The notes: generated by a model from the sequence alone, not told the origin. DNA of 64,000 bases from Candidatus Omnitrophota bacterium (GCA_026387405.1 JAPLLV010000056.1:25765-89764), one strand, 5' to 3'. Counted from the first letter of the stretch, positions 1,838 through 60,360 are shown. Numbers and translations: made by a program.

Positions 1838-1986
1838 GCACCACACCATAAAAGACACCTTTGCCTATTGGAAGGCAAAGTGCGCCGCTTTCTGCGGCGA
1901 TAGTTCAAAAATACTTGATTTTATAAGGGGTTAAGATATAATAAGATTCTTATTTTGGGCTCTGGAAAATAATCGAAAGGAAAAAT

Positions 1987-13302: not shown

Positions 13303-13413
13303 TCCCGCAGAAAGCGGAACACCGATTTATCGCCGCAGTGGCGGCGCACCGGCCAATCAGGTATGGCCGGGTGCATGATAAAATCGGGTTTTAACTGTTG
13401 TGAAGGGACAAAC

Positions 13414-21283: not shown

Positions 21284-21360
21284 TGTCATTGCGAGGAGCG
21301 AAAGCGACGAAGCAATCTAAAGGCATGATTGCTTCGCCCCTTCGGGGCTCGCAATGACAG
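21284..21360 (+). repeat. Family-4 structured repeat with GAAA and UUCG tetraloop hairpins, copy 1
   Basis: Outer stem tgtcattgcgag/ctcgcaatgaca; inner hairpins gaagcaatc...gattgcttc and gcccc-ttcg-gggc; gc-gaaa-gc. Confidence 0.75.
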
Positions 21361-23006: not shown

Positions 23007-23119
23007 TATCCCGCCGACAGGAATAATTTGTTAATTTAGCGACATCTCGCCGAGCGGGTATTTCTTCTTATTCATGCACGGCTATGGCCGTGGTATTCTG
23101 CGAAGGCGGGATAAATCTA

Positions 23120-25933
23120 ATGAGCAATGAAATCCCCAAACAATATAACCCGCGAGAATGTGAAGATAAGTGGTATAAGTTCTGGGAAGAGAATAATTAT
23201 TTCTCCGCCAGGGCCAATCCCGCAAAGAAACCTTTCTCTATAGTCATTCCGCCGCCTAATGTGACAGGGATCCTGCACATGGGCCATGCCTTAAATAACA
23301 CTATCCAAGACATCCTCATCCGCTACCATCGCATGCAAGGTGAAGAGTCTCTCTGGATGCCGGGGACTGACCATGCCGGGATCGCCACCCAAAACGTGGT
23401 AGAAAAAGCCCTTGCCAAGGAAAACATCAAGCGCCAGGATTTAGGGAGGGAAAAATTCATCGAGAAAGTCTGGCTATGGAAGGAACAATACGGCTCCGCC
23501 ATCATCAGGCAGCTAAAGAAATTAGGCGCATCCTGCGATTGGTCAAGGATACGCTTTACCATGGATGAGGAATATTCCAAGGCGATAGTTGAAGTCTTTG
23601 TGCGCCTATATGAGAAGGGCCTGATCTATCAGGGAAACTACATTATCAACTGGTGCCCGCGCTGCCAGACCGCGCTTTCCGATGAAGAAGCGCCGCATAA
23701 AGAGCTGCAGGGAAATTTATACTATTTAAGATATCCTATTGTCGTTAGTCGTAAGTCGTTAGTCGTTAGTAAGGCTGGAGCAAAAGGAAGCGGAAAAAAG
23801 ACGGATGACGAATACATTGTTGTCGCAACTACCCGGCCGGAGACGATGCTCGGCGACACGGCGGTGGCGGTTAACCCCAAAGATAAACGCTATAAGCATC
23901 TTATCGGTGAGAGCATCATCCTGCCTTTAGTCAATCGCGAAATAAAAATTATCTCTGACAACAGCGTGGATGTGAAATTCGGCACAGGCGCGGTCAAAGT
24001 CACGCCCGCGCATGACCCTAACGATTATGCCTTAGGCAAAAAGCACAAGCTGGAATTTATAAACGTGATGCGTGCCGACGGACGCATGAATGAAAATTCG
24101 GGCGATTACAAAGATATGGATCGTTTCGAGGCCAGGGAGGTCATCCTGGAAGACTTGAAGGAAAAGGGATTCCTGGAGAAGGTCGAACCTCACCAGTTGT
24201 CCGCTGGACACTGCTACCGTTGCCACACCATCATCGAACCCTACCTATCCAAACAGTGGTTTGTAAAAATGAAGCCGCTGGCAAAAGAAGCGATACGGGT
24301 AGTCAAAAAGGGTAAGATCAAATTTCATCCGGAGCGCTGGACCAAGGTATACCTTAACTGGATGGAGAATATCCAGGATTGGTGCATCTCCAGACAGATC
24401 TGGTGGGGACATCGCTTGCCTGTTTACTACTGTAAAAATTGCCTGACTAACGACCAACGACTAACGACTAACGACAAGGGAGGCGTTATTGTCTCTCGCA
24501 CTAAGCCGGAAAAATGCCCGGAATGCGGTTCAACCGATATCTATCAAGACGACGATGTGCTGGACACCTGGTTTTCCAGCTGGCTCTGGCCCTTTGCTAC
24601 CTTTGGCTGGCCATTTGGCTTATCGCATATGGCAAATGGCATATCGCAAGAAAGCCATAAGCGATTAGCGATAAGCGATAAGCAAAAGGATTTAGATTAT
24701 TTCTACCCCACCTCTGTCCTCGTTACTGCCCCGGAAATCATCTTTTTCTGGGTAGCGCGCATGATCATGGCCGGCCTGGAGTTCATGCAAGACATTCCTT
24801 TTAGAGATGTTTATATCCACGGGACAGTGCGCGACACCGAAGGCAAAAAGATGTCTAAATCCCTGGGTAATATTATAGACCCGCTGGATATCATAAAAGA
24901 GTTCGGAACCGATGCCTTACGCTTCAGCCTGATATCCATTACCGCCCAGGGCCAAGACGTATTCTTGTCCAAAGAAAGATTTGAACAGGGAAGGAATTTC
25001 GCCAACAAGATCTGGAACGCCTCAAGGTTCATCCTGATGAACCTCCAACCGGAGCAAACCAAAGCCGATCTCTGTGTATTCTTCAAAAAAGAAAATTTAA
25101 GCCTGGAAAACCGTTGGATCTTAAGCCGGTTCTATTCGGTATTAAAAGAGTTAAACTCTCACCTTGACTCCTTAAAATTCAATGAAGCCGCGAATCTTTT
25201 GTATGGCTTCTTCTGGCACGAGTTCTGCGATTGGTATCTGGAAATAATCAAGGCTGATATAAAGAACCCGCAGAACCAGATAGTCATGTATAAGGTGTTA
25301 GAAAAATTTTTAAGGATACTGCACCCGTTAATGCCTTTTTTGACCGAGGAGATCTGGCAGAAATTTAACAACCAACCAACGACCAAGGACCAACGACTAA
25401 CGACCAGTATTATGATCCAGCCCTGGCCGCATGTGCAAGAGCAGATGATCGACAAGAAATATGAAGAATTGATGCAGTCGGTCTTTGATGTCATTGTAAC
25501 CATCCGGAATATGCGCTCGGAATTGGAAATACCCCTCCAGGACACCATATCCTCGACGATTTGTTCTCCCCAGAAGAAGGAACGAGAACTTTTAGCATCC
25601 TGCGCTCCGATCATAAAGAACCTGACCAAAACAGGAGAAGTGGATATCAAAGAGACATGCACGCGCGGCCCGGGACAATTCGTAATGGTCTTAAAAGACA
25701 TGCATATCGTCATCCCGCTCTCAGGGCTAATAGACATTGCTGCCCACCGCAAAAAGACCGAAGAGAAGATAGCCAAAGCTGAGGCAGAGATCAAGCGCAA
25801 AAAGGAACTGTTGGAGAATGCGAATTTCAGCAAAAATGCACCGGAAGAAATAGTAGAGAAGGAAAAGGCGAGGTTAAGCGAATTAAACGAGCTGGTAAAA
25901 AAACTAAAGGCGGTGAAAGATGCACTCCAATAA
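23120..25933 (+). CDS. valS: Valine--tRNA ligase, with four in-frame repeat-derived insertions
   Basis: HMGHAL (HIGH) and KMSKS motifs, C-terminal coiled coil. Insertions at 23741-23774, 24444-24474, 24611-24682 and 25371-25408 fall in loops that are variable in E. coli ValRS. Confidence 0.95.
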   Translation: MSNEIPKQYNPRECEDKWYKFWEENNYFSARANPAKKPFSIVIPPPNVTGILHMGHALNNTIQDILIRYHRMQGEESLWMPGTDHAGIATQNVVEKALAKENIKRQDLGREKFIEKVWLWKEQYGSAIIRQLKKLGASCDWSRIRFTMDEEYSKAIVEVFVRLYEKGLIYQGNYIINWCPRCQTALSDEEAPHKELQGNLYYLRYPIVVSRKSLVVSKAGAKGSGKKTDDEYIVVATTRPETMLGDTAVAVNPKDKRYKHLIGESIILPLVNREIKIISDNSVDVKFGTGAVKVTPAHDPNDYALGKKHKLEFINVMRADGRMNENSGDYKDMDRFEAREVILEDLKEKGFLEKVEPHQLSAGHCYRCHTIIEPYLSKQWFVKMKPLAKEAIRVVKKGKIKFHPERWTKVYLNWMENIQDWCISRQIWWGHRLPVYYCKNCLTNDQRLTTNDKGGVIVSRTKPEKCPECGSTDIYQDDDVLDTWFSSWLWPFATFGWPFGLSHMANGISQESHKRLAISDKQKDLDYFYPTSVLVTAPEIIFFWVARMIMAGLEFMQDIPFRDVYIHGTVRDTEGKKMSKSLGNIIDPLDIIKEFGTDALRFSLISITAQGQDVFLSKERFEQGRNFANKIWNASRFILMNLQPEQTKADLCVFFKKENLSLENRWILSRFYSVLKELNSHLDSLKFNEAANLLYGFFWHEFCDWYLEIIKADIKNPQNQIVMYKVLEKFLRILHPLMPFLTEEIWQKFNNQPTTKDQRLTTSIMIQPWPHVQEQMIDKKYEELMQSVFDVIVTIRNMRSELEIPLQDTISSTICSPQKKERELLASCAPIIKNLTKTGEVDIKETCTRGPGQFVMVLKDMHIVIPLSGLIDIAAHRKKTEEKIAKAEAEIKRKKELLENANFSKNAPEEIVEKEKARLSELNELVKKLKAVKDALQ

Positions 25934-29575: not shown

Positions 29576-29733
29576 CCCCTTTATTATCAAAGAGCTATCT
29601 AGAAACGGTCTGCCGGAAAGCGGTTTCTCTAAACCCCAGAAATACCCTTGAAAATCACCGATTATTAATCCATACTTTTAATGTAAAATTATAATTTTGA
29701 CAATCTGTAAATTTGAACACTACCTAGTGTCAA

Positions 29734-30153
29734 ATGGAGAGCCTAGACGACCATAAAGACAGAAGAACATTCCTGCGCATCGGAACAAATATCCCCCTGA
29801 CATTCCTTAAACAAAGATCCGATAAACCATTTTCCGCCCAAATAAGCGACATCAGCGCAAACGGGATCGGCCTGACCTCAAACCAAAAGATGTCCTGCCA
29901 AACCCCGCTTAAGCTGATCGTAAATATCCCCAACGACGGCCCGTTCTGCGCCGAAGGAGAAGTGGCCTGGATAAAGAAAATAAGGTTTCATAAATACCGC
30001 ATCGGCATAACCTTAACAAAGATCAATCTGCTGGGGATAGCACGCGTATTAAATTTTGCTAAGACCATACCTGAACCTTTACCCGAAGAAATATACGACT
30101 ACCGTCCGTCCTTGCTGCGCTGGTTTAAGAAACCCGGCTTAGCCATACCTTAG
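29734..30153 (+). CDS. PilZ domain protein
   Basis: DRRTFLRI and DISANG motifs; 139 aa. Confidence 0.6.
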   Translation: MESLDDHKDRRTFLRIGTNIPLTFLKQRSDKPFSAQISDISANGIGLTSNQKMSCQTPLKLIVNIPNDGPFCAEGEVAWIKKIRFHKYRIGITLTKINLLGIARVLNFAKTIPEPLPEEIYDYRPSLLRWFKKPGLAIP

Positions 30154-30180
30154 CTTCCTACCAGATAATCAAAAAAAATC

Positions 30181-30208
30181 TTGACAAAAACCTATTTTAA
30201 TTTATAAT
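30181..30208 (+). promoter_or_regulatory. Sigma-70-type promoter of groESL (TTGACA-16 nt-TATAAT)
   Basis: ttgaca at 30181-30186 and tataat at 30203-30208. Confidence 0.6.
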
Positions 30209-30234
30209 TGGCACTCCGAGTACAAGAGTGCCAA
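30208..30234 (+). promoter_or_regulatory. CIRCE-like HrcA operator variant TTGGCACTC-N9-GAGTGCCAA
   Basis: Perfect 9-bp inverted repeat with a 9-nt spacer immediately downstream of the -10 box. It differs from the canonical TTAGCACTC at position 3. Confidence 0.75.
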
Positions 30235-30252
30235 TTTATTAATATTATTAGA

Positions 30253-30340
30253 CACCCCGCGCTAAGAAGTCATCTGGCCCTAGGCACCCGGCGCTTATTT
30301 GAATTGCGCCGGTGTTCCCTCGTGGGGAATTTGCGCGGGT
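30253..30340 (+). promoter_or_regulatory. groES leader hairpin module: outer stem caccccgcgc/gcgcgggtg enclosing inner hairpin cacccggcgc-ttatttgaatt-gcgccggtg. Same motif family as 34243-34274 and 42153-42183
   Basis: Direct reading. 32 nt (gcacccggcgcttatttgaattgcgccggtgt) are identical to the guaB-like leader. Confidence 0.6.
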
Positions 30341-30371
30341 GTTGTCCTGGTGGACAAGGAGGTGTAAAAAA

Positions 30372-30662
30372 ATGGACATCAAACCATTAGGAGACAGGGT
30401 GGTCATTCAGCCCTTAGAGGCAGAGAATAAGACCAAGGGAGGCATTGTCTTACCTGATACGGCTAAGGAAAAACCTCAAGAGGGAAAGGTCGTGGCAATA
30501 GGCAAAGGCAAGATACTGGACAGCGGAGCCGTTCAGGCATTGGAAGTCAAGGTAGGAGACAAGGTGCTTTACGGAAAGTATTCCGGAAACGAGATTACCA
30601 CCAAAGAAGGCCAGGAACTTTTGATCATGCGCGAAGAAGACATCTTGGCAATCATTAAGTAG
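30372..30662 (+). CDS. groES: Co-chaperonin GroES
   Basis: [13 protein letters not shown]... 96 aa. The internal ATG at 30372 is preferred over the upstream ORF start. Confidence 0.95.
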
Positions 30663-30668
30663 CAACCA

Positions 30669-30742
30669 GTTCTCGACTCGCAGCAAATTTATTCTTCGAG
30701 CTTGTCGAGAAGATAAATTTGCTGGCTCGCTCGAACAATATT
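30669..30742 (+). repeat. Family-1 structured intergenic repeat, copy C (inside the groES-groEL spacer)
   Basis: gttctcgactcg + cagcaaatttat + tcttcgagcttgtcgagaag + ataaatttgctg + gctcgctcgaacaatatt. Confidence 0.8.
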
Positions 30743-30770
30743 CTTTAAAAGATTCGAGTCTGAAAGTTAA

Positions 30771-32429
<1,659 letters not shown>

Positions 32430-32460
32430 TCGTTAGTCGTTGGTCGTTGGTTGATAGTCA
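32430..32460. repeat. Heptamer tandem repeat (TAGTCGT/TGGTCGT x4), i.e. the reverse complement of the ACGACTA/CAACGAC family
   Basis: tagtcgttagtcgttggtcgttggttgatagtc directly after the groEL stop. Confidence 0.75.
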
Positions 32461-32497
32461 AAAAAAGGGGGGCACAGGAAAGTGCTCCCCTTTTTTT
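32461..32497 (+). terminator. Rho-independent (bidirectional-type) terminator after groEL
   Basis: A-run, stem ggggggcac/gtgctcccc, loop aggaaa, then ttttttt. Confidence 0.8.
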
Positions 32498-32543
32498 AAA
32501 AATAATACTTGACAAAAAGCAAAAAAAATATAAAATCAAATCA

Positions 32544-33500
32544 ATGAAAAGGTTAATCCTAATAGGAGTTACTCTTAGTATTCTTTTTTGGACAACACTT
32601 TTTGCTGCCTCGCGCAGCGAAGCCATAGAAAATACACTTCTGGCTGCAAATCTTCAGAATTCTCCTCCTCTACAAAAAGGATCCCCCGAAGAAACATCAA
32701 CGAATATACCTGACTGGATCAAGCGCACCAACTTCAATATCCAGGCGGGTACTGATCAAAGACCCAGATATTTCCTGGAGACCGTCCAACCGCTTCTAGG
32801 GACCCAAGAAAAAGATATCGTAATCTTTAATCAATTAAGGATATCCAGCAGCAGCGAGCGCCCTACCTATAATATCGGCCTGGGCTTACGCAAGATTTTT
32901 GCCGAAAAATACCTTTTAGGAATAAACAGCTTTTATGATTATCAAGACCTGCATCAACACAGCCGCGGGGGCGTGGGCTTCGAGGTAATCACGGATAAGG
33001 GCTTTGAGTCGCGCTTAAATACCTATATCAGGATATCCGGTAGGCGGCAAATAGCGGAAGACTCTGCCAATATTTATTACGAAAAGGTGGCCAATGGCTT
33101 TGATTGGGAAGAAGGTATTCCCTTGCCGTATCTACCGCAATTAAAGGTGTACGGCGGAGGTTATTGGTATAATTTTGAGCATTTCAAGAATAAATACGGT
33201 TGGAAGAGCAGATTAGAATACACCCCCTTTAAATATTCTAAGATAAATTTTGAGGTTTTTGACGATACTAAGAGGACCAGAATGGGATACCGCATTGAAG
33301 GAGCGATCTCTCTGGCATTTACCTCCTTTAGCCTCAAAGACCTAAAAGAGGACTTCATCTCCAAACAAGAAGCCTATCCTAAAGTAAATCTACGAGATAA
33401 GGTATTGGACGGGGTAGTCAGGGATTTTAATATCACGGTAATAACATCTACCAAGGCAAAAGGGACAGGGCTGACAGTTGAGGGAGGAAAGAGTGGATAG
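32544..33500 (+). CDS. Secreted outer-membrane beta-barrel protein resembling the inverse-autotransporter (intimin/invasin) beta-domain, without an attached passenger
   Basis: Signal peptide. NIGLGLRKIF..YLLGINSFYDYQ...HSRGGVGFEV...YLPQLKVYGGGYWYNFEHF matches the IAT beta-domain pattern. Confidence 0.5.
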   Translation: MKRLILIGVTLSILFWTTLFAASRSEAIENTLLAANLQNSPPLQKGSPEETSTNIPDWIKRTNFNIQAGTDQRPRYFLETVQPLLGTQEKDIVIFNQLRISSSSERPTYNIGLGLRKIFAEKYLLGINSFYDYQDLHQHSRGGVGFEVITDKGFESRLNTYIRISGRRQIAEDSANIYYEKVANGFDWEEGIPLPYLPQLKVYGGGYWYNFEHFKNKYGWKSRLEYTPFKYSKINFEVFDDTKRTRMGYRIEGAISLAFTSFSLKDLKEDFISKQEAYPKVNLRDKVLDGVVRDFNITVITSTKAKGTGLTVEGGKSG

Positions 33501-34080
33501 CAGGGCGCGCTTTTCTCTTATATTTATAGTACTTTCGCTTCTAGCAATATCTGCTTTTAGCCCCGTGGCTTTTGCCGCCAATCCCACCGGACCCGCATCT
33601 TACTATTTAGTACGTATTACCAAATTCGAGCTTTGGAACGGAACGGAATGGATAACTGCATTTAGCGGCACATCAGACGGCCTGAATATTGCTGCGGCAA
33701 GCGATACGAGTTCTTCGGTAGGAAATTTCTTATCGGGAATAGCTGTTCCGGACGGAACTTATACCAGCTCCAGGGTAACTCCTTCCGGGACATTTGTCTT
33801 TAGCGGGAATGACGGCGCCGGCAATTATACTACCGCTAACATAGGAGCCGGGGCGGGAGTGCACGGCAGTACCCCTACCACTAATGCAGCCCTGGAAGCA
33901 CAGTGCACTATCACTGTTACGGCTGGTGCACAAGAGAAGGCCCTTTCACCTTCTATTGTGGTGAAAGACGGAACCCCTAATCATAGAGTTCGGGTAAAAT
34001 TCAACCTCTCTAACGCCATTGAGAATATTAGCGGCGAACTCTTTCCTGCCGCGCCCGCGGTATCGGTTTCAGTAATATAG
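33478..34080 (+). CDS. Secreted hypothetical protein (signal peptide ending AFA-AN), Thr/Ser/Gly-rich
   Basis: Clear Sec signal peptide. Overlaps the preceding barrel gene by 23 nt in another frame. Confidence 0.45.
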   Translation: MREERVDSRARFSLIFIVLSLLAISAFSPVAFAANPTGPASYYLVRITKFELWNGTEWITAFSGTSDGLNIAAASDTSSSVGNFLSGIAVPDGTYTSSRVTPSGTFVFSGNDGAGNYTTANIGAGAGVHGSTPTTNAALEAQCTITVTAGAQEKALSPSIVVKDGTPNHRVRVKFNLSNAIENISGELFPAAPAVSVSVI

Positions 34081-34242
34081 TCAAACCTTCCTATTTTTAA
34101 GCCTTCCCGCTCTAAAATAAGCATTGACAAAAAAGCATTATTAGTGTAAAATTCAATATCTATTTTGTCGATATCAGACCTACCGGAAAATTCTGTATTT
34201 ATTTGATAAATAAGAGGTTGCGGACACTTGGGCCAGATAGGG

Positions 34243-34274
34243 CACCCGGCGCTTATTTGAATTGCGCCGGTGTC
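34243..34274 (+). promoter_or_regulatory. guaB-like leader hairpin cacccggcgc-ttatttgaatt-gcgccggtg (shared leader motif)
   Basis: Identical to the inner hairpin of the groES leader. Lies downstream of a TTGACA promoter at 34125 and is followed by a hairpin partly covering the SD. Confidence 0.6.
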
Positions 34275-34326
34275 CCCCCCGTGGGGAATTGAGCCAGTGT
34301 TAACTTACTGTTAAGGAGTAGATCAC

Positions 34327-35487
34327 ATGGCAGAGTGGATAGGTATAGGAAAACGCGGCAGAAGGTGCTACGGGTTTGACGAAGTAGCGCTGGTGCCGGG
34401 AGCGCAGACGGTTAACCCGGCTGAGGTTGATACCAGCTTTAAGATCAATGGGAAGAGATTCGAGATCCCTATTCTGGCAGCAGCCATGGACGGGGTTGTA
34501 GATGTAAAATTTGCCGTGGAGATGTCCAAGCTAGGGGGAATCGCGGTCTTAAACCTCGACGGCGTGCAGACCCGCTATGAAAATCCCGATGCCGTGCTGG
34601 AAAAAATCTCCAAGGCCAACCCTCAAGAAGCCACTACGCTGATACAGTCAATTTACACCACTCCCATAAAGGAAAAACTGGTGGGAAAGAGGGTAAAAGA
34701 GATAAAAGCCAAAAAAGGCACTGCCGTAGTCAGTTGTATCCCGGCCAACGCGGAAAAATTCGCTAAGCTCGCGGTAAACGCGGGAGCTGACATATTTGTT
34801 ATCCAATCCACGGTCACCACTACCAAACACATATCCCATCAATATAAAAGCCTGGATTTATTTAAGTTCTGTAAAAAAACACCTATTCCTGTCATTCTCG
34901 GCAACTGCGTAACATATGAAACTACCCTTGAATTGATGGATACAGGTTGCGCCGGACTACTCATTGGTATCGGACCGGGGGCTGCCTGCACTACCCGCGG
35001 AGTCTTAGGAATAGGCGTGCCGCAGGTCACTGCAACTGTAGACGCGGCCGCAGCCCGAGATTTTCATTTTAAACGCAGTGGAAAATACGTGCCTATTATT
35101 ACTGACGGCGGAATGAACCGAGGCGGAGACATCTGCAAGGCCTTTGCTTCAGGAAGTGACGCGGTAATGATCGGCTCCAGCTTTGCCCGGGCAAAAGAGG
35201 CTCCGGGAAGAGGATATCACTGGGGCATGGCTACCTCCCACATGAACCTTCCCCGCGGCACCCGTATTTACGTAGGCTCAACCGGCTCCTTAAAAGAGAT
35301 CTTATTCGGGCCGGCAAAAGTAGATGACGGTTCGCAAAACCTTATGGGCGCTTTAAAGACATCCATGGGGTCCTTAGGGGCGCAAAATATCAAAGAGATG
35401 CAAAACGTCGAGATCATCATCGCGCCTTCAATCCAGACCGAAGGAAAAATCTTCCAGGTAGGACAAAGGGTAGGAATGGGAAAATAG
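34327..35487 (+). CDS. guaB: IMP dehydrogenase / GMP reductase family protein lacking the CBS subdomain
   Basis: GIGPGAACTTRGVLGIGVPQVTA catalytic-loop signature; 386 aa; immediately upstream of guaA. Confidence 0.75.
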   Translation: MAEWIGIGKRGRRCYGFDEVALVPGAQTVNPAEVDTSFKINGKRFEIPILAAAMDGVVDVKFAVEMSKLGGIAVLNLDGVQTRYENPDAVLEKISKANPQEATTLIQSIYTTPIKEKLVGKRVKEIKAKKGTAVVSCIPANAEKFAKLAVNAGADIFVIQSTVTTTKHISHQYKSLDLFKFCKKTPIPVILGNCVTYETTLELMDTGCAGLLIGIGPGAACTTRGVLGIGVPQVTATVDAAAARDFHFKRSGKYVPIITDGGMNRGGDICKAFASGSDAVMIGSSFARAKEAPGRGYHWGMATSHMNLPRGTRIYVGSTGSLKEILFGPAKVDDGSQNLMGALKTSMGSLGAQNIKEMQNVEIIIAPSIQTEGKIFQVGQRVGMGK

Positions 35488-35528
35488 CACGTAGCAAATG
35501 GCTAATGGCAAATAGAAGGAAGGTATAA

Positions 35529-37070
35529 ATGACGAGGCATACGATTTTAATCTTAGATTTCGGTTCGCAATACACGCAGTTGATCGCCAGGCGCGTGCGG
35601 GAGAACAAAGTTTTCTCGCGCATTATCCCGTACAACACCCCGGCAAAAGAGATCGCCGCCATGGGTCCCAAAGGCCTGATCTTATCCGGAGGCCCGGCGT
35701 CTGCCATCACTAAAAAGAGCCCTTACCCGGATAAGGGAATATTCAAACTTGGGATCCCCATCCTGGGTATATGCTATGGCATGCAGGTGATCAGCGAAAT
35801 GTGCGGCGGTAAAGTCAGGCATACCAAGGAGCGCGAATTCGGCAAGACCGAATTATTCATAGATGATAACCGCGACCTCTTCAGCCATATGCCGGGAAAC
35901 CTGACCTGCTGGGCCAGCCACGGGGACTACGTAAATAAACTTCCTCCGGGATTCCATATTTCGGCGCACACCTTGAACGCTCCTATCGCCGCGATGTCTA
36001 ACCGCAATAAAAAGCTCTACGGCGTGCAATTCCATCCCGAGGTTACCCATACGGACAAAGGGAACCAGGTACTGGCAAACTTTTTATTTAAGATCTGCGG
36101 CGCATTAAGCCGCTGGACCATGCAATCATTCATCAAGGAAAGCATAGAAAATATCAAAAAAACCCTGGGTAAAAACAAGGTAGTGCTGGGCCTAAGCGGC
36201 GGGGTAGACTCCTCGGTAGCCGCGCTCTTAATCCACAAGGCCATAGGGAAGAATCTGCGCTGCATCTTTATAGATAACGGGGTGATGAGAAAAGACGAGC
36301 CCCAACAGGTAAAAAGCGTCTTTCGCGGGATGTATCACTTGAACCTGGACTATGTGGACCGCAGTAAACGCTTCCTGGAACGCCTAAGAGGCATTACTGA
36401 CCCCGAGCAAAAACGGAAGATCATCGGGTACGAGTTTGTCAAGGTATTCGAAGAAGAAGCGCACAAACTAAGAGGGGTAAAATACCTCGGCCAGGGGACG
36501 CTTTATCCGGACGTAATCGAATCCTCTTCGCCAACCGGCGCGCCTTCCTGCCGCATTAAAAGCCATCACAACGTCGGCGGCCTGCCGGAACATATGAAAT
36601 TGAAGCTGATCGAGCCGCTGCGCGACCTATTTAAAGATGAGGTGCGGCAGATCGGCAAAGAACTCGGCCTCCCCAGCGAGATAATCCTGCGCCAGCCTTT
36701 TCCGGGTCCGGGCCTGGCGATCAGGATCATCGGAGAGGTAACCAGAGAACGGCTGGAACTTCTGCGCGAAGTCGACCGCAGGGTCATCGAAGAGATCAGG
36801 GTTGCCGGACTCTATGAGCAGATCTGGCAATCCTTTGCCGTCTTGTTACCCATAAAAAGTGTGGGGGTTATGGGAGATGAACGCACTTACGAGAATACGA
36901 TAGCATTGCGCTGCGTCACCAGCCTTGACGGGATGACTGCGGACTGGGCAAAGATACCTTACGAGATCCTGGAAAAAATATCCAATCGTATTATCAACGA
37001 AGTAAAAGGAGTAAACCGCGTAGTCTACGATATCAGCTCCAAGCCTCCCGCGACTATTGAGTGGGAATAA
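35529..37070 (+). CDS. guaA: GMP synthase (glutamine-hydrolysing)
   Basis: Class-I GATase domain, then the ATP-PPase SGGVDSS motif; 513 aa. Confidence 0.95.
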
Positions 37071-37231
37071 ATTAGCAAATAGCACGTGGCGAATAGCAAA
37101 TAGCCATAACACAATCTTTCTGATAAATTTATAAATTTTTTATTTTTGCTTTCCGTGCTAGCGTCCTAAGCTTTACGCTATTAGCCATTTGCCATACGCT
37201 ATTAGCCATTTGCTATTAGCCATAAGCCATC
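37071..37231. repeat. Spacer built from inverted arrays of agcaaatagc / gctattagccatttgc motifs flanking an AT-rich centre. A related motif sits at 35488-35525
   Basis: attagcaaatagcacgtggcgaatagcaaatagccat on the left and gctattagccatttgccatacgctattagccatttgctattagccataagccat on the right. Confidence 0.7.
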
Positions 37232-40200
37232 ATGCCTCGTTCAGAATTCGTCCACCTACACCTGCATACCCAATACAGCCTCCTTGACGGCGCCTGCCGC
37301 ATCCCGGAATTATTAAGCCTAGCCAACCAATATAAAATGGATTCACTGGCTATTACCGACCATGGAGCAATGTTCGGGGCCATCGAATTCTACCTGGAAG
37401 CCCAAAAAGCGGGGATAAAACCGATTATCGGCTGCGAGGCCTATGTCGCGCCGAAAAGCCGCTTTGATAAAACCGGATCAGGCATTGACGAGGCATCCTA
37501 TCACTTTATACTCCTTGCCAAAGACGAGGCCGGTTACCACAACCTGATGAAGCTGGTATCCATCGCGTACCTGGAAGGTTTTTATTACCGTCCGCGCATT
37601 GACAAAGAGTGCCTGGCGCAGCATTCCAAGGGACTTATCGGCCTGACTGCCTGCCTGAAGGGTGAGATCCCGTCCCTGATCAGGGAAAAACGTTTTAACG
37701 ATGCCTTAAAAGAAGCGGACAATTATTTAAACATCTTTGGCAAGGGCAATTTCTACCTGGAGGTGCAAGGCAACTCCATCCCTGAGCAAAGAATAGTTAA
37801 CGAAGGACTGATACGCATTTCTAAAGAATTACACATCCCGCTTGTGGCCACCAATGACGTGCATTACCTAAAAAAGGAGCACGCCTCAAGCCACGAGGCG
37901 CTTTTGTGTATCCAGACCCAGACCACGCTTGACGACCCTAACCGCATGCGCCTGCAAACAGACGAATTCTATTTTCAATCACCGGAGGAGATGAAAGCAC
38001 TCTTCAAAGACCTGCCGGAAGCGATCGCCAATACCCTGGAGATCGCCCAGCGCTGTAACCTGGAGTTGGATTTTTCCCAGATACATTTGCCTAAATATAC
38101 GCCTCCCAACGGCCAGGACAAAGAAGACTACCTCAAGGACCTCTGCGCGGGAGGGCTGAAAAACCGTTTCCCGGAAGCCGCACCGGAAATTAAGGAACGC
38201 CTGGAATACGAATTAAAGATGATCAAGAATATGGGTTTTATCAGCTATTTCCTGATCGTCTGGGATTTTATTCATTACGCTAAAAGCAAAAATATACCTG
38301 TGGGACCGGGGCGCGGTTCAGCCGCGGGAAGCCTGGTGAGTTATCTTTTAGGTATTACCGATATCAATCCTTTAAGTTATGGCCTACTCTTTGAGAGATT
38401 CCTTAATCCTGAACGCTTAGGCCTGCCGGATATCGATATAGATTTCTGTTACGAAAGAAGGCAGGAGGTCATTGATTATGTGACCCAGAAATACGGCCGC
38501 CAGAACGTCGCCCAGATCATCACCTTCGGGACCATGCAGGCCCGCGCCGTGTTGCGCGATGTCGGCCGGGTCATGGGCATAGCCTACGCGGATGTTGACC
38601 GTATTGCCAAGATGATACCCCCGGACCCTAATATCACCCTAAAGGACGCGCTTGAATCAGAAGCGGAAATCAATAACCTCTACAAGAACGACCCCCAGAT
38701 AACAAAACTTATCGATACCGCGCTCTCCCTGGAAGGATTGAACCGTCATGCCTCAGTGCACGCCGCAGGGGTAGTCATCGCGGACAAACCGCTGGATAAT
38801 TACATGCCCCTGTTTAAGACCGGAGACGACCAGATCACCACCGGCTACAGCATGGGGATGCTCGAAAAGATCGGCTTATTGAAAGTGGACTTTCTGGGAT
38901 TAAGGACACTCACTGTCATTGACGAAACCCTAAAATTAGTCAGGCGCACCCGCGGCATAGAAATAGACCTGAAAAATCTTTCTCTCGAAGACTCTAAGAC
39001 CTACAAGCTTCTTGCGAATTCGCAAACAATCGGGGTATTCCAGGTAGAAAGTTCCGGGATGCGCGACCTCTTAAGAAAACTGGAACCCAGCCATTTTGAA
39101 GATATCATCGCGCTGCTGGCACTTTACCGCCCGGGGCCTATAGGTTCGGGGATGCTCGATGACTTCATGAAACGTAAACACAACCAGATTCCCATCAAAT
39201 ATGAACATCCGAAGTTAGAGCCCATTCTCAAGGAAACCTACGGTATAATGGTATACCAGGAGCAGATCATGCAGATCGCATCAAGCCTGGCAGGCTTCAG
39301 CCTGGCCCAGGCAGATATCCTGCGTAAGGCCATGGGCAAAAAGATACCCGAGGTAATGGAGAAACAGCGTAATATTTTTATCTCCGGCTGCGTGAATAAC
39401 GGTATAAAAGAAATCACTGCCTCCAAGATATTCGATCTCATCGAATATTTCTCGGGGTACGGCTTCAATAAATGCGTTGTTGGCTCTACAAAAATAATTT
39501 CTGGAGAAAATGGAGAGCGTATCACAGTAAAAGACTTATTTAGCAACAGGCAGCTGGCCAAAACTACATTCAGCTGCCAGGAAAATTTGAAAATCGTCAA
39601 AACCAACATAAAAGATGTGGTTTATAATGGGGCGAAACCGGTATACCGGCTTCAAACATGCCTCGGCAGAGAAATAGTAGCCACCTCTAATCATCCTTTA
39701 TTTACTTTTAAAGGCTGGAAAAACCTCGGTGATTTACGCATCGGGGAACGAATCGCATTGCCGCGGATCATACCTCTAGAGACCGACAAACAGTGGGAAC
39801 CGCATAAAATAATTGTTTTAGCGGGAATAATCTCTGAAGGAAATACTTGCCATCCTTCCGGGTTTTATTTTTATAATAATAGCGAGACGCTGGTAAAAGA
39901 CTATGTTGAGAACTTGCGTAAGTTTAACAATACAATCCCAAAAATCTATAAAAGAAGGGGGCGTTTTGAGGTATACGCGGGCACAGGCAAAGTCACCAGA
40001 TTTTCCAAAAACCAAATCCCCTGGAATAAACAAGGTTCCTTGACCACTACTACTTTTTATAAATGCGGGGCAAGGCTATGGATAGAAGAATTGGGCCTAG
40101 ACTATAAAAAGGCGAGTGATAAATTTATCCCTCCGGAGCTATTTTCCTTGGAGAATAAACAAATAGCCTTATTCCTGGGTAGGCTTTGGTCAGGAGACGG

Positions 40201-42022
40201 ATTTGTTTTTGGCAAAAACAACTCTATACCTTTTTACGCAAGCTCCTCCAGTAAATTATGCCAACAGATACAGGACTTATTGCTTAGGCTTAATATAGCA
40301 AGCCGTTTAAGCACAAAAAACTTTAAATATAAGTATAAAGGAATCAAGAAAGACGTGCCCGGTTTTACCCTACACCTTTTTGGGAGGGATAGCATAACCA
40401 GATTCATCCAGCTTATCTGTCCTTTTATTATCGATAAAGACGAACAGATCTCACATCTACGTAATTACTACGATAAAGCTTCTGATAATAGTGAATCAAA
40501 AGATACCCTGCCTCCCGAAATAAAGGAGATCGTGAAGGAAGAAAAAGATAAATTCGGCTTGACTTGGAAAGAATTAGAAACAAGGTCCGGAGTTTCAATG
40601 AAGGAATTTTACGGCGCGGACCATCCTAAGAAAAAAGGATTCCGCCGTTATACCATCTTGCGCTTGGCGCGCTTCCTTGAGTCCGAGAGACTATTAAGGT
40701 TTGTAAACTCGGATATACTATGGGATAGAGTTAGTTCGGTTGATTATGTTGGCAGGGAAGATACCTATGACATAGAAATCGAGGGGATCCATAACTTCAT
40801 TGCCAATGGCATAATAGTACACAACTCACATTCGGCCGCCTATGCCATGATCTCTTACCGCACCGCGTATCTAAAGGCGAATTTTCCCGTGGAATTCATG
40901 ACCGCGCTCTTGACCTCAGAACGCGACAATACCGATAAGATCGTAGAATACGTCAATGAGGCCCGGCACATGAACCTTGAGGTACTTCCTCCGGATATAA
41001 ATGAAAGCGAATCCCTGTTTAAGGTTGTAGACCAAAAGACCATCCGCTTCGGGCTGCTGGCAGTAAAAAACGTGGGGCAGGGTGCGGCAGAATCCATTGT
41101 CCAGGCCCGGCAAAACGACGGCAAATTTCTTTCCTTGCAGGACCTCTGCAAACGGATAGACCTACGACTGGCAAACCGCAAGGTCTTGGAAAGCCTGATC
41201 AAGTGCGGGGCCATGGATTATTTTAAGATGCCGCGGGCACAGATGGTCGCCGGATTAGACGGCATATTAGAACAATCCTCAAAGATACAGCGTGACCGCG
41301 CCAAAGGCCAACTGTCATTCTTCGACCAGGCGTTCAAAGAGAATGGTTTCCGCCAGAGCATAAACGACCTGCCCAAGGTACACGAATGGCCGGAGCCGCA
41401 GGTCCTGGCCTTTGAGAAAGAGATACTCGGGTTCTACGTTTCCGGCCACCCGTTAGCCCGTTATGCCGGCCAGCTTAAACGTTTTAGCTCCACATCTATA
41501 CCGGAATTATCGCGGCATAAAGACGATGAAGAGATAAAATTAGTAGGACTTATCTCTAAGATCAAACAGACCCTTACCCGCGCCAAGCAGGAAAAAATGG
41601 CCATCCTGAAACTGGAAGACCTGGAGGGCTCCGTAGAAGCCCTGGTCTTTCCCCAGGCATACCAAAAAGTTTCCCGCTATCTTTTGGCAAGCACGGTAGT
41701 CCTGGTCAGGGGAAGGCTCAACCTGAAAGAAGATACGCCTAAGATCATCATAAATGACCTGTTCCCGGTGGATGAAATTTATAAAATGATCTCCAGCATA
41801 AATATCAACCTGTCCGGCATAAGGGAAAATCTCTTTACCAGCCTAAAGGAGGTCCTTTGCGAAAATAGGGGGAAAATCCCTATATATATGCACCTGGATA
41901 CGTCCACGCGTTCGCGCATCCATCTCGTGGTGGGCGATGGGCTTTTTGTCGAGCCGAGCGAAAAACTGATCCAGGATATAGAAACTCTTTTAGGCGAAGA
42001 CCGCCTATCTTTAATACTCTAG
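37232..42022 (+). CDS. dnaE: DNA polymerase III alpha subunit, interrupted by an in-frame intein
   Basis: PHP domain HLHLHTQYS, polymerase core and OB domain. The ORF is 1596 aa, and is 1145 aa without the intein. Confidence 0.95.
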   Translation: MPRSEFVHLHLHTQYSLLDGACRIPELLSLANQYKMDSLAITDHGAMFGAIEFYLEAQKAGIKPIIGCEAYVAPKSRFDKTGSGIDEASYHFILLAKDEAGYHNLMKLVSIAYLEGFYYRPRIDKECLAQHSKGLIGLTACLKGEIPSLIREKRFNDALKEADNYLNIFGKGNFYLEVQGNSIPEQRIVNEGLIRISKELHIPLVATNDVHYLKKEHASSHEALLCIQTQTTLDDPNRMRLQTDEFYFQSPEEMKALFKDLPEAIANTLEIAQRCNLELDFSQIHLPKYTPPNGQDKEDYLKDLCAGGLKNRFPEAAPEIKERLEYELKMIKNMGFISYFLIVWDFIHYAKSKNIPVGPGRGSAAGSLVSYLLGITDINPLSYGLLFERFLNPERLGLPDIDIDFCYERRQEVIDYVTQKYGRQNVAQIITFGTMQARAVLRDVGRVMGIAYADVDRIAKMIPPDPNITLKDALESEAEINNLYKNDPQITKLIDTALSLEGLNRHASVHAAGVVIADKPLDNYMPLFKTGDDQITTGYSMGMLEKIGLLKVDFLGLRTLTVIDETLKLVRRTRGIEIDLKNLSLEDSKTYKLLANSQTIGVFQVESSGMRDLLRKLEPSHFEDIIALLALYRPGPIGSGMLDDFMKRKHNQIPIKYEHPKLEPILKETYGIMVYQEQIMQIASSLAGFSLAQADILRKAMGKKIPEVMEKQRNIFISGCVNNGIKEITASKIFDLIEYFSGYGFNKCVVGSTKIISGENGERITVKDLFSNRQLAKTTFSCQENLKIVKTNIKDVVYNGAKPVYRLQTCLGREIVATSNHPLFTFKGWKNLGDLRIGERIALPRIIPLETDKQWEPHKIIVLAGIISEGNTCHPSGFYFYNNSETLVKDYVENLRKFNNTIPKIYKRRGRFEVYAGTGKVTRFSKNQIPWNKQGSLTTTTFYKCGARLWIEELGLDYKKASDKFIPPELFSLENKQIALFLGRLWSGDGFVFGKNNSIPFYASSSSKLCQQIQDLLLRLNIASRLSTKNFKYKYKGIKKDVPGFTLHLFGRDSITRFIQLICPFIIDKDEQISHLRNYYDKASDNSESKDTLPPEIKEIVKEEKDKFGLTWKELETRSGVSMKEFYGADHPKKKGFRRYTILRLARFLESERLLRFVNSDILWDRVSSVDYVGREDTYDIEIEGIHNFIANGIIVHNSHSAAYAMISYRTAYLKANFPVEFMTALLTSERDNTDKIVEYVNEARHMNLEVLPPDINESESLFKVVDQKTIRFGLLAVKNVGQGAAESIVQARQNDGKFLSLQDLCKRIDLRLANRKVLESLIKCGAMDYFKMPRAQMVAGLDGILEQSSKIQRDRAKGQLSFFDQAFKENGFRQSINDLPKVHEWPEPQVLAFEKEILGFYVSGHPLARYAGQLKRFSSTSIPELSRHKDDEEIKLVGLISKIKQTLTRAKQEKMAILKLEDLEGSVEALVFPQAYQKVSRYLLASTVVLVRGRLNLKEDTPKIIINDLFPVDEIYKMISSININLSGIRENLFTSLKEVLCENRGKIPIYMHLDTSTRSRIHLVVGDGLFVEPSEKLIQDIETLLGEDRLSLIL
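39473..40825 (+). mobile_element. Intein (451 aa) with a LAGLIDADG homing-endonuclease domain, inserted at the FNK|SHSAAYA site of DnaE
   Basis: N-terminal Cys block CVVGSTKI, two LAGLIDADG-type blocks (KIIVLAGIISEGNT and IALFLGRLWSGDGFV), C-terminal IVHN followed by Ser +1. The flanks GYGFNK / SHSAAYAMISY are contiguous in uninterrupted DnaE proteins. Confidence 0.9.
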
Positions 42023-42152
42023 TCACAAAAGGTGAACATTTCCAGAATCCATAAAATCCTTGACATCGTAACTTTTTGGTGATATTGTAGTTACAATTAT
42101 GGTGTTCATAACACCCGGCCTTACCGGATAGGCCAATGTGCACTTCTGTTAA

Positions 42153-42183
42153 CACCCCGCGCTAATAGGAATTGCGCGGGTGC
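42153..42183 (+). promoter_or_regulatory. hup leader hairpin caccccgcgc-taataggaatt-gcgcgggtg (shared leader motif, variant stem)
   Basis: Same architecture as 30253 and 34243, with compensatory C/G swaps in the stem. Confidence 0.55.
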
Positions 42184-42209
42184 GCCCTTTCTGGGCAGGG
42201 AGGTTCAAG

Positions 42210-42482
42210 ATGACCAAGAAAGATATTATCCTTAAGGTTTCGGACGAAACAAACCTGAAGCAGATTGACGTCAAAAAGGTCGTGCAGAAAACCTTTGACT
42301 GTATCGTGCAGGCGCTGGGAAGAGGAGAGAAGATCGAGTTGCGCAATTTCGGCGTCTTCAAGGTAAAGCAGAGAAAAAGCCGCACCGGCAGGAATCCGCG
42401 TACCGGAGAAGTAGTCCCTGTCCCGCCCAGAAAAGTCGTTGTCTTCAAGCCGGGCCTGGAGATGAAACACGATATAAGATAA
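42210..42482 (+). CDS. hup: DNA-binding protein HU
   Basis: 90 aa, GFGxF and RNPxTG beta-arm motifs (NFGVFKVKQRKSRTGRNPRTGE). Confidence 0.9.
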   Translation: MTKKDIILKVSDETNLKQIDVKKVVQKTFDCIVQALGRGEKIELRNFGVFKVKQRKSRTGRNPRTGEVVPVPPRKVVVFKPGLEMKHDIR

Positions 42483-42509
42483 ACCTTTCACCCTCCCCAA
42501 TACTAAAAC

Positions 42510-43790
42510 ATGTTTAAAAGGATATCAGGCACAAAAGACATTCTGCCTGACGAAACACCGTCCTGGCAAGAAGTGGAAGATTTAGGCCGTAAGGTATTTT
42601 CTCTCTATAATTACCGCGAGGTGCGGCCCCCCTTATTGGAAGAGGCAAAGCTATTTTCCCGGTCGCTCGGCGAATTCGCGGAGGTGGTGCAGAAACAGAT
42701 GTTCCTGGTGAAAAACCAGGATGAGCTTTACGCCTTAAGGCCGGAGGCAACCGCTTCGGTAGCGCGCGCCTACATAGAAAATAACCTCGATAAGACCTAC
42801 GGCTTCTTGAAATTGTATTATACCGGGGCAATGTTCCGCCTGGAGCGCCCGCAAAAGGGCCGTCTAAGACAATTCCACCATATCGGCTGTGAGGCCATCG
42901 GTTCAAGCCTGCCTGAAGTGGATATTGAAGTGATATCCCTAGCAAACAGATTATTGGAGGCCTGGCAGGTCAATAATTATACGATAAAATTGAACAGCCT
43001 CGGCTGCAGTGAGGACAAATCGAAACTTTCCCTGAACCTACGCAAGGCCCTTAAAAGTAATAAAGGCTCACTCTGCGAAGATTGCAAAGTCCGCTATGAA
43101 AAAAATACCTTACGCATACTGGACTGCAAAAACGAGGCCTGCCAGGAAATAGTAAGCAAAATTTCCCTGGAAGAAAAACACCTGTGCCCGGAATGCAAGG
43201 CTCATTTTGAAACCGTAAAGAACGGGCTCCAAAATTTGGGTATCAGATACGAGATCCTGCCGCAACTGGTGCGGGGACTGGACTATTACACCCGGACTAT
43301 TTTCGAGATAAAACACGACGCCTTAGGAACCCAGGATGCCATCGGCGCGGGCGGAAGATACGATAATTTGCTCAAAGAACTGGGCGGGCCGGATGTCGGG
43401 GCAATGGGCTTTGCCTTCGGAGTAGAAAGAATACTATTGGCGTCTTGCGGGAGGCTCAAGAAGCCGGAAGAAAATCTGGTATACATAATAACTATGGGAG
43501 AAAAACCCAAAGCGCAAGGTTTGAGATTATTGCAAGACTTGCGCCGGGAGGGTATTGCCGCAGATACGGATTATGAAGGAAAATCCCTTAAAGGCGCATT
43601 GCGCAGGGCTAATGACCTAAGGGCAAAGAGAGTTTTAATCATAGGAGAAGACGAACTCAAGAAACAGATAGTAACCCTTAAAGATATGGGGTCAGGGGAA
43701 CAGAAAGAAATTAAGCAAGAGGATCTTATTCAGTCATTGCGAGGAGCCAATGGCGGTTGCGAGGCGAAGCCGAAGCAAACCAGCAGCTAG
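42510..43790 (+). CDS. hisS: Histidine--tRNA ligase. The C-terminal roughly 19 codons are encoded by the family-4 repeat
   Basis: Class II motifs and the HisRS anticodon-binding domain; 426 aa. Confidence 0.9.
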   Translation: MFKRISGTKDILPDETPSWQEVEDLGRKVFSLYNYREVRPPLLEEAKLFSRSLGEFAEVVQKQMFLVKNQDELYALRPEATASVARAYIENNLDKTYGFLKLYYTGAMFRLERPQKGRLRQFHHIGCEAIGSSLPEVDIEVISLANRLLEAWQVNNYTIKLNSLGCSEDKSKLSLNLRKALKSNKGSLCEDCKVRYEKNTLRILDCKNEACQEIVSKISLEEKHLCPECKAHFETVKNGLQNLGIRYEILPQLVRGLDYYTRTIFEIKHDALGTQDAIGAGGRYDNLLKELGGPDVGAMGFAFGVERILLASCGRLKKPEENLVYIITMGEKPKAQGLRLLQDLRREGIAADTDYEGKSLKGALRRANDLRAKRVLIIGEDELKKQIVTLKDMGSGEQKEIKQEDLIQSLRGANGGCEAKPKQTSS

Positions 43791-43877
43791 CGAAAAATGG
43801 GATTCCTCGCTGCGCTCGGAACAGGCTGCGCAATCTAAAATTAAGATTGCTTCGCCCCTTCGGAGCTCGCAATGACG
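43733..43877 (+). repeat. Family-4 structured repeat, copy 2, carrying a roughly 75-nt internal insertion. It spans the hisS 3' end and the hisS-aspS spacer
   Basis: gtcattgcgaggagc ... gcgcaatctaaaattaagattgcttcgccccttcggagctcgcaatgac. Shares the outer stem, inner stem and UUCG hairpin with copy 1 at 21284. Confidence 0.75.
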
Positions 43878-48269: not shown

Positions 48270-48773
48270 ATGGAAATAGCCATAAAAAACCTGCAGTCCA
48301 AAATTCCTATCAATCCGAAGAGGATAAAAAGAATAATCCTTGATACGCTTTCATCCGAAGGCGTCAAAAAACCAGCGAGCATCAGTGTCTGTTTTGTAAA
48401 CGACAAGAAAATAAAGGAATTGAATCTGCGTTTCCTTAAAAGATCGGGACCAACCGACGTAATATCCTTCGACCTATCCGCCGGTACAAAAGAGATTGTC
48501 GCGGAGATCGCCGTCTCTACGGACACGGCTATACGCCAGTCAAAGATCTATCACACCACTTATACCTATGAAACTCTCCTTTACGTAATACACGGGTTGC
48601 TGCATATACTTGGCTATGACGACAGAAGCGCCCGTCAAAGAAAACTCATGCAGGAAAAAACAGAATCTATACTTGATAGTTCCCGACTCGGAAAAACTTT
48701 TATTCTTCGAGCAAGGTCCCTGCCTGCCGGCAGGCAGGGAGAAGATAAAAGTTTTGCCTCGCTCGAACAATAA
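48270..48773 (+). CDS. ybeY: Endoribonuclease YbeY, C-terminally extended by read-through into repeat copy D
   Basis: HGLLHILGYDD zinc-binding motif. The last roughly 20 codons lie inside the family-1 repeat. Confidence 0.85.
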   Translation: MEIAIKNLQSKIPINPKRIKRIILDTLSSEGVKKPASISVCFVNDKKIKELNLRFLKRSGPTDVISFDLSAGTKEIVAEIAVSTDTAIRQSKIYHTTYTYETLLYVIHGLLHILGYDDRSARQRKLMQEKTESILDSSRLGKTFILRARSLPAGRQGEDKSFASLEQ

Positions 48774-60285: not shown

Positions 60286-60360
60286 TCTTAGCGTATAGCG
60301 TAGAGCGTATAGCGGATAGACCTATACGCTAAACGCTATCCGCTAAACGCTAAAAGAAAG
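60286..60360. repeat. Family-2 simple repeat / imperfect palindrome built from TAGCGTATAGCG and CGCTAAACGCTA units
   Basis: ttagcgtatagcgtagagcgtatagcggatag-acc-tatacgctaaacgctatccgctaaacgctaa. Shares agcgtatagcggatag with 15885. Confidence 0.75.

Follow-up and report, generated by a model that had tools for sequence, protein, structure and literature searches.

The leaders of groES, a guaB-like gene and hup in a 64,000-nt stretch of Candidatus Omnitrophota DNA (hereafter, the window) contain similar hairpins, and the question is whether these belong to a control element of the three genes, as a sequence-only reading had suggested, or to something more general. The bacteria of this phylum, which are ultra-small and often predators or dependent on a host, are uncultured, and to our knowledge nothing is known about the control of gene expression in them.

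The hairpins turned out to be real and shared, and all three sites were found as described. Each site consists of two abutting hairpins, HP1 and HP2, which make up a unit of about 46 nt. The genes were identified by Pfam (Cpn10, Cpn60, IMPDH, GMP synthase, Bac_DNA_binding). A covariance model, R1, was built from 48 gap-free copies of the module and recovered 129 matches in 790 kb. With this model and a looser descriptor, about seven copies are seen in the window. The sites are as follows.

30208–30234: CIRCE variant upstream of groES, TTGGCACTC-N9-GAGTGCCAA
30253–30341, plus strand: compound (nested) module of the groES leader, with the inner module inside the outer HP1 loop
30253–30262 and 30333–30341, plus strand: arms of the groES outer HP1, CACCCCGCGC and GCGCGGGTG
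30285–30314, plus strand: groES inner HP1 with a bulged C, CACCCGGCGC-ttatttgaatt-GCGCCGGTG (as RNA, CACCCGGCGC-uuauuugaauu-GCGCCGGUG)
30315–30329, plus strand: groES inner second hairpin, UUCCC-ucgu-GGGGAA, C-rich as is typical of nested copies
30342–30357, plus strand: groES HP2, UUGUCC-uggu-GGACAA, immediately 3' of the outer HP1 (R1 hit at 30331–30357)
34225–34299, plus strand: decayed outer stem of the guaB-like leader, CACUUGGGCC (34225–34234) and GAGCCAGUG (34291–34299)
34243–34272, plus strand: HP1 in the leader of the IMPDH-family (guaB-like) gene and guaA (R1 62.3 bits, E=1.5e-11)
34273–34287, plus strand: C-rich second hairpin of the guaB-like leader, UCCCC..GGGGA
34300–34314, plus strand: guaB-like HP2, UUAAC-uuacu-GUUAA, adjoining the Shine-Dalgarno (SD) sequence AAGGAG (34313–34318), with the ATG at 34327
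42112–42139, plus strand: decayed GGCC-type variant of HP1 in the hup leader, CACCCGGCC-uuaccggaua-GGCCAAUGUG, upstream of and in tandem with the module at 42153–42196
42153–42182, plus strand: hup HP1, CACCCCGCGC-uaauaggaauu-GCGCGGGUG (R1 49.1 bits, E=1.1e-8)
42184–42196, plus strand: hup HP2, GCCC-uuucu-GGGC, followed by the SD AGGGAGG (42197–42203) and the ATG at 42210
1856–1899, plus strand: divergent module in a non-leader position, CACCUUUGCC-uauuggaa-GGCAAAGUG, then CGCCGC-uuucu-GCGGCG (R1 E=0.056)
13303–13388, minus strand: nested divergent module that fills the spacer between two plus-strand genes, antisense to transcription (R1 E=2.7e-4)
46838–46925, minus strand: second nested divergent module, between plus-strand genes, with the layout of 13303–13388 (weak, R1 E=0.87)

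In the groES leader the inner module, flanked by UAAGAAG...AGG and UUU, lies in the loop of the outer HP1. Its own HP1 scores 60.9 bits with R1 (E=3e-11). The final two A's of HP2 start the SD sequence AAGGAGG (30356–30362), and the ATG follows at 30372. The nested layout of the guaB-like copy matches that of groES, the segment 34286–34299 being GAATTGCGCSGGTG with two mismatches. The long identical stretch reported earlier for these two copies comprises 33 bases (30283–30315 = 34241–34273), and the identity over 61 nt is 84%; judging by this similarity, the groES and guaB-like copies look like recent paralogues. A 1395-nt Logan contig (L001), which matches the guaB-like protein exactly and corresponds to window positions 34248–35642, has an end inside the repeat shared with groES. 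We read this end as an assembly break, not an RNA end, since it falls inside the repeat, which probably breaks short-read assemblies. The GGCC-type variant of HP1, decayed in the hup leader, is intact in loci L007, L019, L025, L053, L101 and L127. The module at 1856–1899 starts 19 nt past the stop codon of the gene 881–1837 and lies upstream of the promoter-like site of the next gene.

The 3' half-site GAATTGCGCSGGTG, with at most two mismatches allowed, occurs five times in the window against 0.81 expected, and none of 100 shuffles reaches five. Matches to the sigma-70-like promoter consensus were seen at 30181–30208 (12/12), 34124–34152 (11/12) and 42060–42088 (10/12, with TG); these are the three best such sites in the scanned 13 kb (29600–42600), and each is situated just upstream of a module. 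The groES hairpin does lie downstream of a CIRCE variant, as had been noted. A function related to CIRCE was considered and rejected, as the latter appears from its sequence to be a separate upstream element.

Outside the window, one genome per prokaryotic species was scanned with the strict pattern CACCCSGCGC-N(2–20)-GAATTGCGCSGGTG. The module was found in at least 118 stretches from at least about 71 species-level genomes, nearly all of them Candidatus Omnitrophota/Omnitrophica; the complete genome of Ca. Velamenicoccus archaeovorus has two sites among the matches listed. A few matches are labelled Planctomycetales, Deltaproteobacteria, Nitrospirota, Margulisiibacteriota or Babeliales. These come from auto-named or very short contigs, and one of them (L104) is orthologous to a Velamenicoccus site. 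Altogether about 140 copies, essentially all intergenic, are present in 909 kb of loci plus the window, which itself is syntenic with the Omnitrophota MAG contig L019 at 72–89% nucleotide identity. No copy matched in the viral contigs of IMG/VR. Rfam 15 yields no family at the gathering threshold for the whole window and nothing relevant at E up to 10 for the groES leader, and we found no description of the module in the searchable literature. In 18 loci of other context, Rfam produced only tRNAs and one TPP riboswitch antisense to a module: in L076 (2025–2220) the plus-strand aptamer (2025–2137) is immediately followed by a module on the opposite strand (2171–2220). On reading the sequences we also rejected a CRISPR repeat, as there is no array, a tRNA-like element or T-loop mimic, and a K-turn.

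The alignment of 122 copies defines HP1 as a purine at position −1, CAC, one bulged C, a 6-bp stem CSGCGC/GCGCSG, a loop and GUG. The earlier description of the stem needs correction in that a conserved bulged C makes the arms unequal, 10 nt and 9 nt. The loop is 11, sometimes 12 nt long and reads U(U/A)AUnGGAAUU. HP2 has 5–6 bp and a loop of 4–5 nt, and while its sequence is nearly unconserved, the pairing is kept. In 108 of 118 copies no nucleotide separates the two hairpins. On the 5' side the flanking sequence is preferentially AAGA/AAGG (purine at −1 in 108/116). As for an extension of HP1, the −2:+2 pairs show only a weak excess (77 against 62.7 ± 4.5), and the −1:+1 pairs none. The predicted stability of HP1, which is G+C-rich, is −14.7 kcal/mol. 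The loop contains GGA in about 82% of HP1 copies (UGA in the groES and guaB-like copies of the window), which invites comparison with a two-site target of the CsrA type, but CsrA binding leaves the conserved stem and bulge unexplained.

The compensatory C/G swap in the stem, proposed earlier from three sites, extends to the whole collection: 121 of 122 copies are complementary, against about 62 if the two positions were independent, the search pattern having admitted all four S/S combinations. The pairing is also conserved in relatives. In the R1 alignment 99.0% of 1827 cells are standard pairs (80.1% in shuffles), and 12 of the 15 pairs change on both sides, which amounts to 354 cells. The covariation score is reached by none of 500 shuffles, and when the partner columns are slid by 1–3 positions, pairing falls to 22–67%. 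Each HP2 pair is represented by three to six pair types. The looser descriptor yields HP1 variants with different yet complementary stems (UGGCGC/GCGCCA, UUGCGC/GCGCAA, CAACGC/GCGUUG, CGGCC/GGCCG, UUGCCA/UGGCAA and UUUGCC/GGCAAA), always in the frame CAC-bulge...GUG. Most copies were gathered by the strict HP1 pattern, hence the constancy of the HP1 sequence is partly an effect of the search, and the pairing alignment was fitted to R1. However, neither the covariation in HP2 nor the HP1 variants with other stems depend on the strict pattern, and the pairing of both hairpins is strongly supported. The counts of G.U and A.C combinations, 17 and 11, are too close to tell which strand folds.

The position of the module is tied to the downstream gene. 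An SD sequence and a start codon are found within 45 nt of 87 out of 140 copies (62%), compared to 14 out of 140 (10%) in the reverse orientation. The distance from the end of HP1 to the start codon is 22–34 nt in about 70 of 122 copies, and that from the end of HP2 to the SD start is −4 to +1 nt in 67 of 122. The 3' end of HP2 touches the SD AAGGAGG, with the last one or two A's shared. In spacers between co-directional genes 84 copies (91%) are sense and eight are antisense, a bias that could partly reflect co-orientation of genes and replication. Many copies start 0–10 nt past the upstream stop codon and thus are located inside operons. The sequence-only reading would have been undermined by a motif dispersed outside leaders, and this is partly the case: the window copies at 1856–1899, 13303–13388 and 46838–46925 are not in SD leaders.

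The genes behind the modules have no common function: 76 downstream proteins contain 97 Pfam families, none of them in more than two proteins. Prominent among the products are Hsp70, DnaN, L20, L31, EF-Tu, ACP, type III glutamine synthetase and a phosphate-binding protein. Some modules precede tRNA genes. In five of 39 scanned tRNAs HP1 ends 12–14 nt ahead of the tRNA 5' end, and HP2 overlaps the first tRNA bases. More leaders of tRNA-Arg, -Pro and -Gly contain nested or interrupted copies, about ten tRNA leaders in all, and the orthologous tRNA-Pro leaders of four species have the module. The form of HP2 differs with the context: it has an nnGU tetraloop in 56 of 87 leader copies, and among 36 non-leader copies 5-nt loops are seen in 21 and a CU end in 18. 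Since at least about 70 Omnitrophota genomes have copies just ahead of ribosome-binding sites and of some tRNAs, the module is not an element that controls groES, the guaB-like gene and hup specifically. The earlier idea of a cis-regulatory RNA retains its leader position, and action at the RNA level is plausible; what does not hold is a regulator of three units, as the same module stands before at least 76 unrelated genes and several tRNAs.

The small hairpin that had been described as overlapping the SD does abut it and shares its leading A's, but the SD is not covered. In the predicted minimum-free-energy folds of the three window leaders it is unpaired, and the mean predicted probability of an unpaired SD is 0.53 in module leaders and 0.51 in controls (p=0.40), that is, not higher. 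Since the SD is not occluded, an SD-masking attenuator or thermosensor is unlikely. The same equality with control leaders led us to reject the idea of an SD-presenting insulator. Nor does the module resemble an intrinsic terminator: there is no U tract, HP1 is followed by HP2 and then by the SD, modules are not among the terminator-like sites, and in non-leader copies the sequence 3' of the module is not U-rich.

At the same time, the module has features of a dispersed repeat. In nested copies an inner HP1 and a C-rich hairpin are situated within the outer HP1 loop, always between UAAnnAGR and (G)AAUU. Besides the groES and guaB-like leaders of the window, this architecture is seen in at least 12 other loci (L010, L023, L025, L033, L035, L063, L073, L083, L098, L100, L101, L105). 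L022, L118 and L017 contain tandem units that are perfect or nearly so. Some copies are antisense, lie between convergent genes or fall in the 3' end of an ORF. Thus, in L047 (3716–3790), L080 (about 850–900) and L096 (about 2190–2240) the antisense strand of the module encodes the C-terminal tail of a minus-strand membrane protein, ...LLPQ(I/L)AEHPRNSD(Q/K)RGV*, including the stop codon. The tail is conserved in three species, among them Ca. Velamenicoccus archaeovorus, and the membrane proteins are 73–90% identical.

Presence of the module also varies at orthologous sites. Relatives of the groES locus were chosen by the GroES protein, not by the motif; in about 21 of them GroES is at least 73% identical and the TTGACA/TATAAT promoter and CIRCE are kept. 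Of these, L127, L140 and perhaps L128 are the only ones with the module in the groES leader. In the closest relative (GroES identity 92%) CIRCE runs directly into uuuAAGGAGGugu-AUG and the module is absent. It follows from these module-less relatives that the compound module of the window, about 110 nt, is an insertion just 5' of the SD. Relatives devoid of the CACC module often have inserts with unrelated hairpins in the stretch from CIRCE to the SD (L121, L122, L129, L133, L135); the groES leader is apparently a hot spot of structured insertions in this lineage. The ppdK-like leader has two modules in L019 and, in the same place in the window, an unrelated heptad-repeat hairpin with 32-bp arms. 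Given this replacement and the absence from most groES leaders, the module is dispensable at a given gene. Elsewhere it is retained: the dnaN leaders of L088 and L114 (DnaN 81% identical) both have it, with one G-C to A-U double change in HP2, and so do the dnaK leaders of two species (DnaK 87% identical). Copies within a genome vary in the loop and HP2 as much as those from different genomes, with HP1 and HP2 pairing kept. Among the copies collected, no clear target-site duplication is seen, the flanks being biased to AAGR (5') and AAGG-AGG (3'); there is no GTAG-like head, the unit starting with R-CACC; and no inverted pairs of the REPIN type were observed, clusters being direct or nested.

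Several other elements share this genomic landscape. Heptad-style repeats, (TAGCGTA)n versus (TACGCTA)n and GTCGTTA/ACTAACG, are present in the window at 60288–60353, 37070–37220, 32415–32458 and 35468–35509, and further ones at 7622–7654, 23741–23770, 24446–24478 and 25375–25407. They form long hairpins in several spacers (the arms in the ppdK-like leader are 32 nt). They occupy the same intergenic niche as the CACC modules and replace those found at the orthologous L019 site, and the three repeats between 23741 and 25407 are situated not in spacers but inside a long ORF, 23084–25933. A perfect 24-nt palindrome, TCCCTGCCTGCCGGCAGGCAGGGA, occurs at 48717–48740 and 63163–63186. Its core CCTGCCTGCCGGCAGGCAGG is seen beside or inside modules in L078, L095, L096, L085 and L017, and in L096 it splits the 3' arm of an HP1; apparently this is a second mini-palindromic insertion element, independent of the module. 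Yet another intergenic repeat family is a 60-nt palindrome, GTTTACCCCCACACCAATTGG...CCAATTGGTGTGGGGGTA, with two copies at 14856–14915 and 59887–59946 (77% identical). A 47-nt repeat with a hairpin, GCCCCTTCGGGGC, is found at 21312–21358 and 43830–43876 (89% identical), each time just past the end of a plus-strand gene. The window also contains a group I intron at 8694–8960 (Rfam RF00028, 82 bits, full length), outside any tRNA predicted by ARAGORN or Rfam, and the DNA polymerase III alpha gene (37232–42022) contains an intein with a LAGLIDADG homing-endonuclease domain (Pfam Intein_splicing, LAGLIDADG_3).

How can these observations be reconciled? The anatomy, pairing, distribution, orientation and position of the module are matters of observation, and from the sense bias and the adjacency to the SD we infer that it most plausibly matters as RNA. 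The explanation that we favour, giving it about an even chance, is a generic RNA-level leader or intercistronic cassette with a factor-recognised HP1, which defines or protects 5' ends and has a REP/MITE-like mode of spread and loss. The module would be transcribed within a 5' leader or an intercistronic spacer and would act generically, not per gene. HP1, with its fixed sequence, bulged C and loop UWAUnGGAAUU, is most likely the recognition site of a putative conserved trans-acting factor, and HP2 may be a sequence-free clamp that sets the module flush against the SD or the tRNA 5' end. Its most likely role would be post-transcriptional, the 5' end of the following cistron being defined or protected and perhaps also the 3' end of the preceding one, by analogy with a portable 5' stabiliser or a processing site. 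Copies may be gained and lost by duplicative or mobile-like events, which would explain the nested, tandem, antisense and presence/absence patterns. A more specific version seems unlikely to us, namely a genome-wide system of RNA punctuation built from a domesticated mobile hairpin, in which an RNA-binding protein or endoribonuclease peculiar to the Omnitrophota recognises HP1 and punctuates polycistronic transcripts and tRNA precursors. Each downstream cistron would then be left with a hairpin-protected 5' end beside an exposed SD. RNase E is reported to prefer RN/WUU, and the GA-AUU of the HP1 loop would fit this preference.

The main alternative is a purely selfish or neutral palindromic repeat of the REP/MITE kind, with no host function, copied on single-stranded DNA hairpins by a transposase acting in trans, e.g. 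of the RAYT or IS200/IS605 type. Its leader position would then reflect a target preference for AAGR or SD-like sequences, or survival where insertion is harmless. We consider this possible, although we incline against it. The nested insertions, always at one point of the HP1 loop, and the perfect tandems of L022, L118 and L017 are what such an element would produce, as are the differing presence at the orthologous groES and ppdK-like leaders, the antisense copies, the copy that forms a C-terminal tail and stop in L047, L080 and L096, and the apparently recent groES and guaB-like paralogues. The insertion of the second mini-palindrome CCTGCCTGCCGGCAGGCAGG into modules, the AAGA/AAGG bias of the 5' flank with its purine at −1 (108/116) and the predicted SD accessibility, no higher than in controls, point the same way. 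On the other hand, copies within one genome are as diverged in the loop and HP2 as copies from different genomes and yet retain the pairing of both hairpins, and a compensatory change is seen at an orthologous site, the dnaN leaders. The 91% sense orientation, the nucleotide-exact fit to the SD and an HP2 subtype that tracks the context also speak against it, and so does the fact that among the copies collected no clear target-site duplications, GTAG heads, inverted REPIN pairs or viral (IMG/VR) matches were seen.

The remaining candidates fare worse. A signal in nascent RNA, either a terminator or pause site devoid of a U tract or a nut/boxB-like loading site for an antitermination factor, would agree with the high stability of HP1 (−14.7 kcal/mol), with copies that follow a stop codon, precede the next promoter or separate convergent genes, and with copies ahead of untranslated tRNAs. 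It is nevertheless very unlikely, as no T/U run follows the module and no module is terminator-like, the position is anchored to the downstream start rather than to the upstream stop, and many copies lie within ribosomal-protein and other operons, where termination would be harmful, while an antitermination site is needed once per operon. The palindromic operator of the sequence-only reading, that is, HP1 as DNA bound by a dimeric global transcription factor or nucleoid protein, could be suggested by a conserved inverted repeat downstream of strong window promoters; we regard it as highly improbable, since complementarity is kept through many different stem sequences, the bulged C and the directional loop make the element asymmetric, the sequence of HP2 is not conserved, the orientation closely follows transcription, and the intercistronic spacers that harbour most copies are too short for a promoter. 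Finally, a gene-specific attenuator or RNA thermometer common to groES, the guaB-like gene and hup has in its favour a structured leader beside the SD and, in groES, the location downstream of CIRCE. It is largely refuted and has only a negligible chance, given an SD that is unpaired in the folds and not less accessible than in controls, functionally unrelated downstream genes, tRNA leaders with the module, the lack of the module in most close groES relatives and of any Rfam family match.

Structured intergenic repeats are a known kind of element (REP/BIME, Correia, ERIC, BOX), but of the features that define them the module shows no GTAG head, no inverted pairs and no clear target-site duplication. 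Like REP/BIME, it is a short, G+C-rich, imperfect bulged palindrome, dispersed between genes, presumably co-transcribed, clustered and conserved in sequence across related species; REP/BIME may affect mRNA stability. Unlike them, it has no GTAG head, occurs singly, in direct tandem or nested rather than in inverted pairs, includes a second covarying hairpin, and is 91% sense and mostly flush with the downstream SD rather than 3' of the upstream gene. The Correia/NEMIS, ERIC, BOX and RUP MITEs are likewise small non-autonomous repeats of leaders with hairpin transcripts and presence/absence differences between relatives, and they can alter the stability or processing of neighbouring mRNA. However, they are 100–400 bp long against about 46 nt, no terminal inverted repeats with target-site duplication were found for the module, and the latter keeps one core hairpin in at least about 71 species-level genomes together with the nucleotide-exact relation to the SD.

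The E. coli ompA leader hairpins and the Bacillus 5' stem-loop with STAB-SD are stable stem-loops upstream of an exposed SD in abundant mRNAs. The mechanism proposed for the module would be that of such portable 5' UTR stabilisers, by analogy; those, however, serve single genes, whereas here one sequence stands before scores of genes and tRNAs. An intercistronic hairpin or site could also define and protect ends in the way that Cas6/Csy4 repeat hairpins and chloroplast PPR10-type sites do, again as an analogy of working and not a claim of membership, the module having no CRISPR array context. What distinguishes the module from the known repeats is the two-hairpin unit with one core in at least about 71 genomes, 91% sense orientation and a nucleotide-exact fit to the SD or the tRNA 5' end.

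In practical terms, Omnitrophota contigs can readily be diagnosed by the module, which is also carried by several loci assigned by label to other phyla. It is also a source of assembly breaks and can mislead the calling of start codons. As for biology, it adjoins the ribosome-binding sites of housekeeping genes (dnaK, dnaN, those for EF-Tu, ACP and ribosomal proteins, groES, hup) and the 5' ends of tRNAs. A functional module would point to a factor specific to the lineage and to a way of processing or stabilising mRNA that is general in the Omnitrophota; a selfish one would be a mobile element of an unusual kind, with translation-initiation regions as its targets.
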